A DNA stretch of 21,641 nucleotides from a virus. Shown here piece after piece: positions 6,994 through 12,806 of the stretch. Position numbers and translations under genes: made by a program. The stretch lies in the UHGV virus genome UHGV-1847494, one strand, 5' to 3'. The number at the start of each line of letters is the position of its first letter. The stretch's first letter is position 1. The notes under the pieces were generated by a model. The model made no database searches and was not told the DNA's origin. It saw only the letters and a list, made by a program, of their open reading frames with translations.

Positions 6994-7018
6994 AGGCTAC
7001 CTTCGGGTGGCCTTTTTT
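6994..7018 (+). terminator. Intrinsic terminator with cUUCGg tetraloop after the head morphogenesis gene
   Basis: aggctacc-ttcg-ggtggcct (8-bp stem with one G.U pair, UUCG loop) followed by T6 at 7013-7018, 20 nt after the stop codon. Confidence 0.65.
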
Positions 7019-7078
7019 ATTGCTGCGATCCGGATGGTGAGCAGCGTAACTGTCGGAAGACTTAAACCAGGTACTAAT

Positions 7079-7843
7079 ATGAAACTGAAAACGGTCGAGA
7101 TTAACGGAAAACAATACGCAGAAATTGATACTGCTGGCCTGCCAGTTTATGTGCACGACGATGGTAAAGAAATTGGCTTCGATGCACCGCTGGCGACAAA
7201 AAAAATTACAGAGCTTAATAGCGAGGCAAAAAATCATCGCCTGGCTAAAGAAGCTGCAGAGGAAAAACTGGCTAAGTTTGCCGCTATCGAAGACCCGAAG
7301 AAGGCGATCGAGGCACTGGAAATGCTGTCAAAAATCGACCAGAAAAAGCTGCTCGATGCGGGACAGGTTGACCAGGTTAAGGCAGAAATTACGAAAAATT
7401 TTCAGCAGCAATTAGATGAAGAAAAGCAACGCTCTCAGATGCTGGAGAAGCAGCTTTACGATTCTATGATTGGCGGTAGTTTTGCGGGTTCAAAATATAT
7501 TGCCGATAAAATTGCGATCCCGGCAGATTTATTACAATCACGCTTCGGGCAGGCATTCAAAGTGGAAGAAGGGAGGATCGTTGCTTATGACGCTTCCGGC
7601 AACAAAATTTATTCCCGCGCGAAGCCTGGCGAACTGGCGCAGTTTGATGAGGCGCTGGAGTTCCTTGTCGAAAATTACCCTCAGAAAGACTACATCCTGA
7701 AAGCCAGTGGCAACAATGGCGGCGGCTCCCGTCCGACACAGCATGATATTGGTCAGAAAACGATGAAACGCTCTGCTTTTGATGCACTGGATGTTGCAGG
7801 TAAGCAAAACGCATTGAAAGACGGTATCACAATCGTTGATTAA
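7079..7843 (+). CDS. Head scaffolding protein (putative)
   Basis: Preferred start is ATG 7079 (MKLKTVEING...). The track start at 7007 would overlap the upstream terminator. Acidic, helical, coiled-coil-like sequence located between the head morphogenesis and major capsid genes. Confidence 0.55.
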   Translation: MKLKTVEINGKQYAEIDTAGLPVYVHDDGKEIGFDAPLATKKITELNSEAKNHRLAKEAAEEKLAKFAAIEDPKKAIEALEMLSKIDQKKLLDAGQVDQVKAEITKNFQQQLDEEKQRSQMLEKQLYDSMIGGSFAGSKYIADKIAIPADLLQSRFGQAFKVEEGRIVAYDASGNKIYSRAKPGELAQFDEALEFLVENYPQKDYILKASGNNGGGSRPTQHDIGQKTMKRSAFDALDVAGKQNALKDGITIVD

Positions 7844-7941
7844 CACATTTGTCAGCTTCCGGATGGGAGCTGGTGTCAGGGCTGGATAGCTCATTACTCC
7901 ATCTATTCACAATTACGCAAATTTTTAAGGAATATTTAATT

Positions 7942-9081
7942 ATGGCTGGAAATACCCTGACCGGGTTGATCCCGACTATTTATACCGCCCTGGATGTTGT
8001 ATCCCGTGAGCAGGTAGGTTTTATCCCTGCGGTAGCAAAAAACGCAAAAGCTGACGCCGCAGCAAAAGATCAGACGGTAACCGCGCCAGTTGCGCCTGAG
8101 GCGAAAACCGAAGATATCGTACCGGGGCCGTCAGCTCCGAATACCGGTGATCAAAATATTGGCACTGTTGATGTAAAAATTACTAAATCCAAAATGGCAC
8201 CGGTTAAATGGAATGGTGAAGAACAACTGGCTCTTGGTCCTTCAGGGACTTACAACACCATTCTGGCTGATCAGTTCAAGCAGGCTTTTCGCGCCCTTGC
8301 AAACGAGGTTGAGGCTGATCTTGGTGCGTTGTATTTCGGTGCTTCCCGCGCCGTGGGAACCGCAGGGACAACGCCGTTTGGTGTTAAAGATGATCTTTCT
8401 GATGCTGCTCTGGCTCGTCAGGTTCTGGAGGATAACGGCGCACCGACAACCGATCTGCAGATGGTGCTTGGCTCCACTGCCATTGCTAATTTGCGCGGAA
8501 AACAGTCTGTATTGTTTAAAGTGAATGAATCCGGCACTGAACAGCTACTGCGTGAGGGCGTGTTGGGGCGTCTGGAGGGATTCAATATTCACAGTTCGGC
8601 AGGTGTGAAACGAGCGCCAAAGGTTGCTGCAACTGGTTATCTCGTGAATGGAGAGAAAAAAGAAGGCGATGTTCTTATTTCCATTGATACTGGTTCGGGG
8701 AGTATTTCTGCAGGTCAGATTGTTACGTTCGCTGGTGATCCGAATCAGTATGTTGTGGCAGCAGCGACCAGCAATCTGATTACTCTTGCAGCGCCCGGAC
8801 TGCGTCAGGATCTGGCCGATGATACTGCCATCACAGTTGTTGGGGCCTTTACTGCAAATATGGCGTTTGATCGCAACGCGTTTCTGCTGGCATCCCGTAC
8901 TCCGGCAATGCCGGAAGGTGGCGATAATGCTGATGATGTAATGAATGTTACGGACCCGATTTCAGGGATTACGTTCCAGATTGCACTGTATCGTCAGTAT
9001 CGCCAGGTGCGCTATGAAGTTGGACTGGCATGGGGTGTTTCATCAGTGAAGCCGGCACATGGTTGTCTGATTCTTGGTTAA
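7942..9081 (+). CDS. Major capsid protein
   Basis: Preferred start is ATG 7942 with SD AAGGA 10 nt upstream; the track start at 7849 has no SD. 379 aa, follows the scaffold gene, and is followed by a strong terminator, as is typical for highly expressed coat genes. Confidence 0.7.
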   Translation: MAGNTLTGLIPTIYTALDVVSREQVGFIPAVAKNAKADAAAKDQTVTAPVAPEAKTEDIVPGPSAPNTGDQNIGTVDVKITKSKMAPVKWNGEEQLALGPSGTYNTILADQFKQAFRALANEVEADLGALYFGASRAVGTAGTTPFGVKDDLSDAALARQVLEDNGAPTTDLQMVLGSTAIANLRGKQSVLFKVNESGTEQLLREGVLGRLEGFNIHSSAGVKRAPKVAATGYLVNGEKKEGDVLISIDTGSGSISAGQIVTFAGDPNQYVVAAATSNLITLAAPGLRQDLADDTAITVVGAFTANMAFDRNAFLLASRTPAMPEGGDNADDVMNVTDPISGITFQIALYRQYRQVRYEVGLAWGVSSVKPAHGCLILG

Positions 9082-9091
9082 ACATTCAAAC

Positions 9092-9111
9092 GGGGCTTCG
9101 GCCCCATTTTT
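9092..9111 (+). terminator. Intrinsic terminator with cUUCGg tetraloop after the major capsid gene
   Basis: ggggc-ttcg-gcccc (5-bp GC stem, UUCG loop) at 9092-9105, followed by attttt. Confidence 0.7.
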
Positions 9112-9123
9112 AATGGGGGGCAT

Positions 9124-11841: not shown

Positions 11842-11853
11842 TTTTCCGTTATT

Positions 11854-11880
11854 CCCCCTGTGGTACTGCACTACAGGGGG
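11854..11880 (+). other. Stable hairpin between major tail and chaperone genes (no T-tract)
   Basis: ccccctgtggt-actgc-actacaggggg: 11-bp stem including one G.U pair, 5-nt loop. It is followed by acgcattgaATG, not a U-run. Confidence 0.4.
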
Positions 11881-11889
11881 ACGCATTGA

Positions 11890-12351
11890 ATGAGGTTATG
11901 GATGTTTATTCTTAATCAGAAAATTATCATCGGTGGAGAACGCTGGTTTACGCCAATGAAGGACTTAAAACCTGTAGACGGGTTAAAACTGTTGGTGGCA
12001 AGCAGCGATAACGATCAGTATCGCTCCCGTAATGCATTAATCCGTCGTCACATTGAGAAAATGGATGCCAGTTTGCACGTCGGAACGAAGGAGTTTGATA
12101 TTTCAAAGGTTTCCGAGGTAGATTCTGTTGATGATTTACTCATTGATAATGCTGCTCGTTATCTGCTGAAAGACTGGAAAGGGGTTGGTGAACTGGTTAA
12201 TGGTGCTGAGGTTGCACTGGAATATACGCCAGAACGAGGGATCGCGCTGCTTAAGCAGAATCCAGAGTTGTACTGGCAGATCCTTGCAGAAGCAGCCAGC
12301 ATCGCCCAGGGTAAAGAGCAGCAGAAGCAGGATACGATAAAAAAGCCATAG
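11890..12351 (+). CDS. Tail assembly chaperone (lambda gpG-like)
   Basis: 153-aa acidic ORF immediately upstream of the tape measure gene. GGGGG lies 9 nt upstream of ATG 11890. Ends with the slippery heptamer A_AAA_AAG just before its TAG stop. Confidence 0.65.
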   Translation: MRLWMFILNQKIIIGGERWFTPMKDLKPVDGLKLLVASSDNDQYRSRNALIRRHIEKMDASLHVGTKEFDISKVSEVDSVDDLLIDNAARYLLKDWKGVGELVNGAEVALEYTPERGIALLKQNPELYWQILAEAASIAQGKEQQKQDTIKKP

Positions 12352-12659
12352 CCGCCCAGCGGTGGTTATCGGAGTTCGGGGGAGAAAGGGGGGAAAAGGC
12401 AAGATGGAAGCGAGAAAAACTCAGGTTGCCACCGATACCGGAACCAGAAATAGACCCGGTGCTTAAGGAATTGTTGTACGCCTATTCGGTAATATCCCGT
12501 GCCCGACGTTATGCTGGAATGACCGGGGTGCCTTTGCCTTTATCTCTGACAGAGATAAATGAATATTTAGCCACTCATCCGGTATTGATTGAGCGCGATG
12601 AGTTTGAAGCAGTGATCTTTGCACTGGATGACCAGTATTTTCAGGATCAGTGTGTGTAG
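11890..12659 (+). CDS. Tail assembly chaperone G-T fusion, made by programmed -1 ribosomal frameshift
   Basis: The -1 frame is open from 12339 through the track ORF 12426..12659, with no stop between them. The heptamer A AAA AAG at 12339-12345 sits in the zero frame as X_XXY_YYZ. The G/G-T arrangement upstream of tape measure genes is conserved in long-tailed phages. Confidence 0.6.
12339..12345 (+). promoter_or_regulatory. -1 programmed frameshift slippery site A_AAA_AAG
   Basis: Codons ata-aaa-aag-cca-tag in the G frame. The heptamer is identical to the E. coli dnaX slippery sequence. Confidence 0.6.
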
Positions 12660-12782
12660 TTGTTAATTACGTACACTCTGTTACAGAGATGTGATGGTGT
12701 CTTTAATTAAATCGATGATGCTCCTGGAGAAAAGCATTGCGTGGCCTCGTAATCGCTATATCTACTATTATGTCGCCTGAAA

Positions 12783-12806
12783 CCCACTTCGGTGGGCTTT
12801 TTGTTG
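12783..12806 (+). terminator. Intrinsic terminator with cUUCGg tetraloop immediately upstream of the tape measure gene
   Basis: cccac-ttcg-gtggg at 12783-12796 followed by cttttt. Lies in a 163-nt noncoding spacer, 20 nt before the TMP SD and start. Confidence 0.55.

Follow-up and report, generated by a model that had tools for sequence, protein, structure and literature searches.

What are terminators doing between the genes of an operon that has to be transcribed to its end? The question is raised by a stretch of 21,641 nt from the virus genome UHGV-1847494, which is the late region of a Rac-like lambdoid prophage common in Escherichia coli; by the window we mean this whole stretch, at its full length. 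The first-pass annotation, made from the sequence alone, had listed three intrinsic terminators with cUUCGg tetraloops among the structural genes. All three hairpins were confirmed in intergenic gaps, in the direction of the genes and with their T-runs, and are called H1, H2 and H3 here. Comparison with related phages indicates that they are genuine and evolutionarily conserved intrinsic terminator signals.

6994..7019, + strand: H1, an 8-bp hairpin with a UUCG loop and a T-run, between the minor head gene and the scaffold leader
9092..9111, + strand: H2, GGGGC-UUCG-GCCCC followed by A and T5, directly after the P22-type major capsid gene
12783..12806, + strand: H3, CCCAC-UUCG-GUGGG followed by C and T5, past the G/GT chaperone genes and a 123-nt spacer

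H1 consists of AGGCUACC-UUCG-GGUGGCCU at 6994-7013 with UUUUUAUU directly 3' of the stem, and begins 19 nt past the stop codon of the MuF-like minor head gene. The stem-loop of H2 (9092-9105) starts 10 nt past the capsid stop codon; it is followed by a single A and by UUUUU at 9107-9111, which ends 12 nt before the next ATG. The stem-loop of H3 (12783-12796) is followed by C and by UUUUU at 12798-12802, and its T-run ends about 20 nt before the ATG of the tape measure gene at 12823. Each of the three lies on the sense strand, past a stop codon and in an intergenic gap, and each has a tetraloop. The stems are those expected of intrinsic terminators, with 8 bp in H1 (5 G-C), 5 bp in H2 (all G-C) and 5 bp in H3 (4 G-C). 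A U-tract follows every stem, in a less canonical form in H2 and H3, where one base intervenes.

A generic terminator scan recovers H1, H2 and H3. A dedicated scan required a hairpin closed by CTTCGG with at least five pairs, followed by at least five T in eight positions; it gave three matches on the plus strand of the window and none on the minus strand. The same scan of 1000 dinucleotide shuffles gave no match in 997 and one match in three, and a chance origin of the hairpins was rejected (three seen vs about 0.003 expected). The core folding energies are −13.2 kcal/mol for H1, −9.6 for H2 and −7.2 for H3, so that hairpin strength decreases along the operon. The core fold of H1 has z = −4.0.

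Relatives were gathered via the capsid protein and comprised 37 loci (one genome per species) and 80 viral contigs. The loci span Escherichia, Citrobacter, Serratia, Providencia, Photorhabdus, Erwinia, Gilliamella and others, with capsid identity of 71–100%. At the H1 position every relative locus has a hairpin, a run of 6–7 T, the letters AT and then the scaffold leader. H1 was found in all 37 distinct relative sequences, and its T-run has 6–7 T in each of them (37/37). The stem covaries, with double-sided changes at five of the eight pairs. In some viral contigs (L181, L184 and L190) an unrelated hairpin with a T-run stands in for H1, for example CCCCGGCAAUGCCGGGG plus T8; these non-homologous replacements carry T6–8. 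Because unrelated elements of the same build replace H1, it is the terminator form that appears to be selected at this place, not a particular sequence. The invariant T-run and the substitution by unrelated terminators further argue that termination itself is selected, beyond a stable hairpin.

The GGGGC-UUCG-GCCCC hairpin of H2 is near-invariant from E. coli to Photorhabdus (n = 35 distinct sequences), and one relative has a compensated stem, GGGGA/UCCCC. The bases between the capsid stop codon and the hairpin vary freely, and the flanks diverge. In relatives the hairpin is followed by a T-rich tract and then by the ribosome binding site of the next gene. At least three of the first four bases past the stem are T in 31 of the 35 sequences, and in most relatives UUU comes directly after the stem, with no spacer. 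Pairing of the 3' arm GCCCC with the Shine-Dalgarno sequence of the next gene (GGGGGG) was considered and rejected: the sequences of the E. coli lineage would allow it, and relatives do not conserve it. Both H1 and H2 occur with or without inserted genes nearby, and the pattern of change indicates that purifying selection keeps them across the 71–100% range of capsid identity.

The first-pass annotation had treated the UUCG loop as a feature that the terminators share. This is true of all three hairpins in the window but is not conserved. The loop of H1 is UUCG in just 11 of the 37 distinct sequences, UCCG being commoner, and the commonest E. coli form of H3 has another loop as well. H2 has UUCG in 28 of 35 sequences, with UGCG, UACG and CUCG among the rest. 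UUCG loops are said to be prevalent in E. coli terminators, as d'Aubenton Carafa and colleagues reportedly found in 1990; a search of the literature on UUCG loops in terminators returned nothing usable.

H3 is limited to the E. coli/Shigella lineage, and the window has a degraded variant of it. Other E. coli copies read ACCCAC-UUCG-GUGGGU plus T6–8, and the Rac prophage of K-12, a deleted form of the prophage in which ydaY and the beginning of the tape measure gene remain, keeps H3 as ACCCAC-UUCGCG-GUGGGU plus T6. In other lineages, non-homologous elements of a hairpin and a T-run, or inserted morons, are found directly past the chaperone stop codon. The 123-nt spacer at 12660-12782, between the stop codon of the chaperone T part and H3, occurs in the E. 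coli lineage only. It holds a 28-codon open reading frame at 12694-12780 (MVSLIKSMMLLEKSIAWPRNRYIYYYVA), which ends 2 nt before H3; a consensus scan found no promoter-like site ahead of it, and nothing is annotated in K-12 at this spacer.

Two gaps are insertion hot spots among the relatives, with moron inserts of 0.3–1.4 kb across both. One is the gap between the minor head and scaffold genes (L010, L014, L021, L023, L027, L029 and L102), where the extra genes (inserts of 0.3–0.9 kb) are without exception on the upstream side of H1; the inserts of L021 and L102 end in a second H1-like terminator, in tandem with H1. The other is the gap after the chaperone genes (L003, L012, L019, L021, L099 and L116). 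On one reading, mosaic recombination and moron insertion would have left the hairpins as remnants or by-products, either terminators that arrived with inserted genes or short conserved module joints, with no role for the phage. The placing of hairpins in the two hot-spot gaps (minor head/scaffold and GT/tape measure) and the tandem terminators around the inserts in L021 and L102 would suit this, as would the position of H3 behind a lineage-specific spacer with a short open reading frame and the variation of the tail modules past H2 among relatives. The retention of H1 and H2 under purifying selection, with or without an insert, speaks against it, as does the lack of a promoter-like site ahead of the 28-codon frame. 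In the window H1 and H2 directly follow conserved phage genes, not morons. Covariation, invariant T-runs and unrelated replacements indicate selection and argue against the hairpins being accidents of mosaicism; we consider this origin very improbable.

The function of the hairpins has to be judged against the genes that they separate. The genes of the window were named by profile searches (PHROG, Pfam) as follows.

138-929: ParB-like gene with a ParB_N domain
901-1854: TET-associated glycosyltransferase (PF20691, 8e-35)
between 1854 and 4472: terminase
4472-5878: portal
5859-6974, + strand: minor head/head morphogenesis protein, MuF-like (phrog_241, 2.9e-183; PF04233); H1 comes next
7079-7843, + strand: DUF6651 scaffold-like gene (PF20356, 1e-60; phrog_206, head scaffolding, 4e-23)
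7942-9081, + strand: major capsid protein of the P22 coat family (phrog_283, 1.6e-136; PF11651); H2 comes next
9124-9300: 58-aa protein
between 9300 and 10879: adaptor, head closure, neck and tail terminator genes
10879-11841: tail tube
11890-12351: chaperone G, YdaY (phrog_313)
ending at 12659: T part of the chaperone, in the −1 frame (weak Phage_TAC_18 match)
12823-16056, + strand: tape measure, first gene past H3 (PF06791, PF09718, PF24622)
after 16056: tail tip genes

By its frames, the G gene followed by a −1-frame open reading frame has the usual layout of a G/GT programmed frameshift. The region 5800-13000 of the window is 100% identical to prophage DNA of many E. coli chromosomes. Of 5426 complete E. 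coli genomes, 1209 carry this region at least in part, and it also matches a few phage records named 'vB_EcoS'. An annotated prophage copy in NZ_CP026723.1, referred to as L001, is identical to the window apart from 48 bp at 3172-3219. In L001 the order is a gene in the Q position, tRNAs, the holin, lysozyme and spanin genes, the trkG moron and then the window, whose position 1 is the base after the trkG stop codon. The ParB_N and glycosyltransferase genes sit between the trkG moron and the terminase genes, and may form a DNA-modification module within the late operon. The 48 bp at 3172-3219 are an insertion relative to L001. They carry the Illumina TruSeq adapter AGATCGGAAGAGCGTCGTGTAGGGAAAGAGTGT, are bordered by duplicated AAATTTAAAGC, and put an in-frame stop codon into the large terminase gene; the insertion is probably an assembly artefact. 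Open reading frames on the minus strand at 18429-21605 were considered as an insertion sequence element and rejected, having no Pfam hits and lying opposite the tail-tip gene J, which itself runs past the end of the window.

The window has two more co-directional intergenic hairpins, which the first-pass annotation had missed.

87..120 (hairpin 87-110), + strand: 10-bp terminator-like hairpin right after the trkG moron, −18.9 kcal/mol
11854..11880, + strand: 11-bp hairpin lacking a T-run, immediately past the tail tube gene, −19.5 kcal/mol

The first has a poor T-run (TGCGTTTTAT) and lies upstream of the ParB-like, glycosyltransferase and terminase genes. All relatives have a strong hairpin past the tube gene, and most have a T-run on it. 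Across the family, four conserved terminator positions bracket the scaffold and capsid genes, the genes from head completion to the tube, and G/GT.

The tube-gene hairpin has no T-run here, and therefore the hairpin seems to count for more than termination at that site; a hairpin can evidently be kept on its own. This bears on a post-transcriptional role, in which protective stem-loops at 3' ends (at the 5' end in the case of H1) would set the lifetimes of segments of a processed late mRNA, the T-runs being incidental and termination slight. Apart from the strong tube-gene hairpin, such a role would suit the spacer base ahead of the T-run in H2 and H3. It would also suit the interval from H1 to H2, which holds exactly the two most abundant head proteins together with structured leaders (described below), and the position of the inserts, always upstream of H1, by which H1 remains joined to the scaffold leader. 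Hairpins of the cUUCGg type were reportedly first noticed, by Tuerk and colleagues in 1988, as very stable structures in intercistronic regions of T4, and this stability points the same way. A T-run is not needed for protection, yet H1 has its 6–7 T in every distinct sequence and its replacements have theirs, and T-runs follow the tube and GT hairpins in relatives. We hold a mainly post-transcriptional role to be unlikely; it is compatible with the insulation of gene modules proposed below and does not exclude it.

Internal terminator hairpins are a known kind of feature. In the record of P22 (NC_002371.2; L241) a stem-loop that follows gene 5, the coat gene, is annotated at 6102-6119 as 'putative; similar in location to stem-loops in phage HK97 and phage lambda'. 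Its sequence, GGGGC-UGCG-GCCCC with the T-rich tail TTTCTTTAT, combines the stem of H2 with a loop of the UNCG class. Like H2, it lies a few bases past the stop codon of a P22-family coat gene and before a small open reading frame, and H2 can be counted as a post-coat stem-loop of the P22 type. The exact P22 form of H2 is found in two relatives of the window (L014 and L025). The window differs from P22 by its UUCG loop and by the extra A before the T-run, and the two capsid proteins are related at the family level only (PF11651, 1e-12). Either the hairpin is better conserved than the protein or the common stem arose by convergence. A literature search for P22 late-operon transcriptomes found nothing.

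A second case is HK639 (NC_016158.1), a free-living viable phage that has the head module in common with the window, its capsid protein being 75% identical. Terminators are annotated in its late operon at 4901-4922, 9019-9040, 10003-10029 and 10850-10873. The first, GGUCGC-UUCG-GCGGCC plus T6, is homologous to H1 and has the same GGAU-hairpin leader behind it; a 38-codon membrane open reading frame is inserted before it. An H2 hairpin is present past the capsid gene and is unannotated in the record. Terminators are also found past the major tail gene and ahead of the tape measure gene, and those of the tail region have no sequence homology to H3. Late terminators do not come up in a 2025 paper in which HK639 is mentioned. 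In the P22-like phage L, a terminator was described at the end of the procapsid module of a late operon with a single promoter (Zaworski et al. 2020, PMC8022706). Its authors noted that such terminators are not unique and that 'their roles are not known', and suggested partial termination or a block to non-antiterminated transcription (PMC8022706). The phage L terminator is likewise an in silico prediction, and the two proposals are the same two ideas as in the first-pass annotation; the antitermination hypothesis is thus already published for phage L.

The need for read-through, stressed in the first-pass annotation, is borne out by the layout. The hairpins lie upstream of essential genes, the gaps after them are 12–60 nt long, and a consensus scan found no sigma-70-like site after H1, H2 or H3, activator-dependent promoters being outside its reach. 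Because the gaps have neither room for a promoter nor a promoter-like site, expression downstream logically needs read-through. The gap between H1 and the scaffold gene was considered as a promoter and rejected: it has no consensus match, and covariation of its stems implies that it acts as RNA. These 60 nt past H1 form a conserved, covarying RNA structure and must therefore be transcribed through H1. The viable phage HK639 carries homologues of both H1 and H2.

Lambda-type Q proteins render RNA polymerase resistant to downstream terminators. The late region would resemble this system, with a presumed single late promoter, a candidate Q gene upstream and terminators that need read-through. In L001, the identical prophage, the gene in the Q position (L001 1657-2199, outside the window) matches DUF1133 (1e-107) and Phage_antitermQ (27.1 bits vs a cut-off of 26). 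It is followed by tRNA and holin/lysozyme genes, and terminator-like sites lie between it and the holin gene, ahead of the lysis genes (L001 2279-2310, 3065-3084 and 3420-3433). Q-type antitermination with insulation of the late operon is plausible on this evidence.

The reading that we favour, with moderate confidence, is that the hairpins are intrinsic terminators which insulate the structural modules, which Q-modified polymerase passes, and which act secondarily as barriers to exonucleases. Along with the tube-gene hairpin and the terminator past trkG, they lie where modules of the single late operon meet. Without modification at the late promoter, polymerase would stop at these hairpins. 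In the lysogen, transcription from morons such as trkG and from spurious promoters would be kept out of three modules: scaffold and capsid, head completion and tail shaft, and tape measure and tail tip. Since the morons of relatives always lie upstream of H1 or by the H3 position, these terminators probably end moron transcripts. After induction, polymerase modified by the Q-type antiterminator would pass the hairpins, and all structural genes would be carried on one transcript. In the read-through RNA the hairpins would form again, probably as exonuclease barriers favouring the scaffold-capsid segment bounded by H1 and H2. The sequences show the build of the hairpins, their non-random occurrence, their conservation with covariation, the invariant T-runs, the logical need for read-through and a Q homologue upstream in the same prophage; termination itself, its efficiency, its dependence on Q and the stabilising role are what we infer.

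The first-pass annotation had also proposed that the hairpins might set mRNA levels, high for the capsid gene and low downstream. A known case is the leaky terminator T-phi of T7, past the major capsid gene 10, which raises capsid mRNA relative to downstream genes; T7 differs in having its own RNA polymerase. In the general form of this proposal, leaky attenuators would act even on antiterminated polymerase and step the mRNA dosage down along the operon. Such a gradient, with the capsid gene high and later genes low, could apply to H2 and H3. The sites after the capsid, tube and GT genes follow abundant or early-needed products and precede the low-copy tape measure and tail tip, the order of strength is H1 > H2 > H3, and the phage L paper made the same suggestion (PMC8022706). 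For H1 the proposal runs in the wrong direction. Terminase, portal and minor head proteins, which are low-copy, are encoded upstream of H1 and the scaffold and capsid proteins downstream, so that the strongest and best conserved hairpin would give the opposite of the stoichiometry needed. The abundant tail tube is likewise encoded downstream of H2, and Q-modified polymerase generally resists intrinsic terminators. Since H1 separates low-copy genes on its upstream side from the genes of the two most abundant head proteins, stepwise attenuation is not a general explanation, and we rate it as quite improbable.

Several observations count against insulation by Q-controlled terminators. H2 has just 5 bp, and in the E. 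coli lineage an A comes between its stem and the T-run. H3 is weak in the window (−7.2 kcal/mol, with the C spacer), and its 38-nt context resembles shuffled sequence (z = −0.47). The tube-gene hairpin has no T-run in the window. The Q assignment is a borderline Pfam match, and the gene lies outside the window. In the K-12 term-seq data of Adams et al. 2021 no plus-strand 3' end is found at 14264xx, the copy of H3; because the cryptic Rac region is probably little transcribed in K-12, this null is uninformative.

The interval between H1 and H2 holds two further elements, the leaders of the scaffold and capsid genes.

7020..7078, + strand: E1, scaffold-gene leader, two hairpins with GGAU and GGAA tetraloops (P1 at 7022-7045, P2 at 7052-7061)
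7849..7894, + strand: E2, capsid-gene leader, two hairpins, one of 10 bp with a GGAU tetraloop and one of 4 bp with a UGGAUA loop

The hairpins of E1 are GCUGC...CC-GGAU-GG...GCAGC and GUC-GGAA-GAC, and the second hairpin of E2 is GAGC-UGGAUA-GCUC. The Shine-Dalgarno sequence of the capsid gene, AAGGAA, which holds the last GGA, lies downstream of the E2 hairpins; where relatives have a long E1 leader, the scaffold Shine-Dalgarno sequence has a GGA hairpin beside it. Each copy consists of 2–5 short hairpins with loops about 23 nt apart, and the GGA(U) loops are invariant. Covariation was assessed on loop-anchored alignments; whole-leader MAFFT misaligned P1. In P1 of E1, 97.4% are paired, with double changes at five of seven pairs (slid controls 21–64%). 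In E2, 96.8% of cells are paired, with double changes at nine of 14 pairs (slid controls 30–48%).

A covariance model derived from E2 matches the copies of E1 (for E1 of the window, E = 3e-4), as well as Rhizobium phage P106B and Caulobacter phage DMCA. More than 120 viral contigs matched the motif in an exact-pattern scan. Of those examined, nearly all have it just upstream of the ATG of an 'MKLK...' scaffold gene, usually past a terminator, and a few matches lie elsewhere; one GC-rich contig has five GGA hairpins in a row. The motif co-occurs with DUF6651 scaffold genes and is absent from a relative whose scaffold gene is not of this family. A search of 6900-13000 against Rfam gave four weak matches (E = 0.6–10, far below the gathering scores), none of them at the hairpins or leaders. 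A loose scan of the window for YGGAWR or short GGA hairpins was not specific and was set aside. E1 was also considered as a put-like or nut-like antitermination site and rejected, as it has no supporting feature and lies downstream of H1. The GGAU-hairpin leaders form a conserved RNA motif, undescribed as far as the Rfam search shows, and are less ordinary than the terminators.

Several short hairpins with GGA in the loop are also typical of sites for CsrA/RsmA, as in CsrB, RsmZ and the hcnA leader; the CsrB hairpins of K-12 have the form C-AGGAU-G or C-UGGAU-G. As in CsrA targets, at least two GGAs lie in loops and one lies at or near the Shine-Dalgarno sequence. The A(N)GGA context is lacking, the base two before GGA being U, C or G and never A. 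Unlike CsrA sites, the loops of E1 and E2 are tight GGAU or GGAA tetraloops without a 5' A, and the motif travels with the DUF6651 scaffold gene and occurs also in alpha-proteobacterial phages. To our knowledge, the hosts of the Rhizobium and Caulobacter phages lack CsrA. Published work describes some proteobacterial classes as lacking it, and a literature search for a link between CsrA and phage head genes found nothing. A partner encoded by the phage has at least the same likelihood as CsrA, and the scaffold protein would be the most natural candidate, by analogy with autoregulation by gp8 of P22.

Autoregulation of the P22 scaffold protein gp8 was reportedly described in 1985 as post-transcriptional, and its mechanism is said to be still unknown. 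As a tentative extension, which we put forward as a possibility below even odds, the stretch from H1 to H2 would be a self-contained cassette for expression of scaffold and capsid. The leaders would be translational operators bound by unassembled scaffold protein (or by CsrA in gamma-proteobacteria) and would match synthesis to assembly, with the terminators insulating the cassette.

Annotations of P22 and HK639 already list terminator-like hairpins in lambdoid late operons, notably past the capsid gene, and the phage L paper discusses them; to that extent little is added here. What the comparison adds is evidence of selection, in the form of covariation, invariant T-runs and replacement by unrelated terminators, which makes it worthwhile to test the role of late-operon terminators in a tractable phage, for instance HK639. 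The GGAU leaders could matter more than the terminators. If they are indeed operators, they would supply the cis element for scaffold autoregulation of the P22 type and would explain the balance of scaffold and capsid in these phages.

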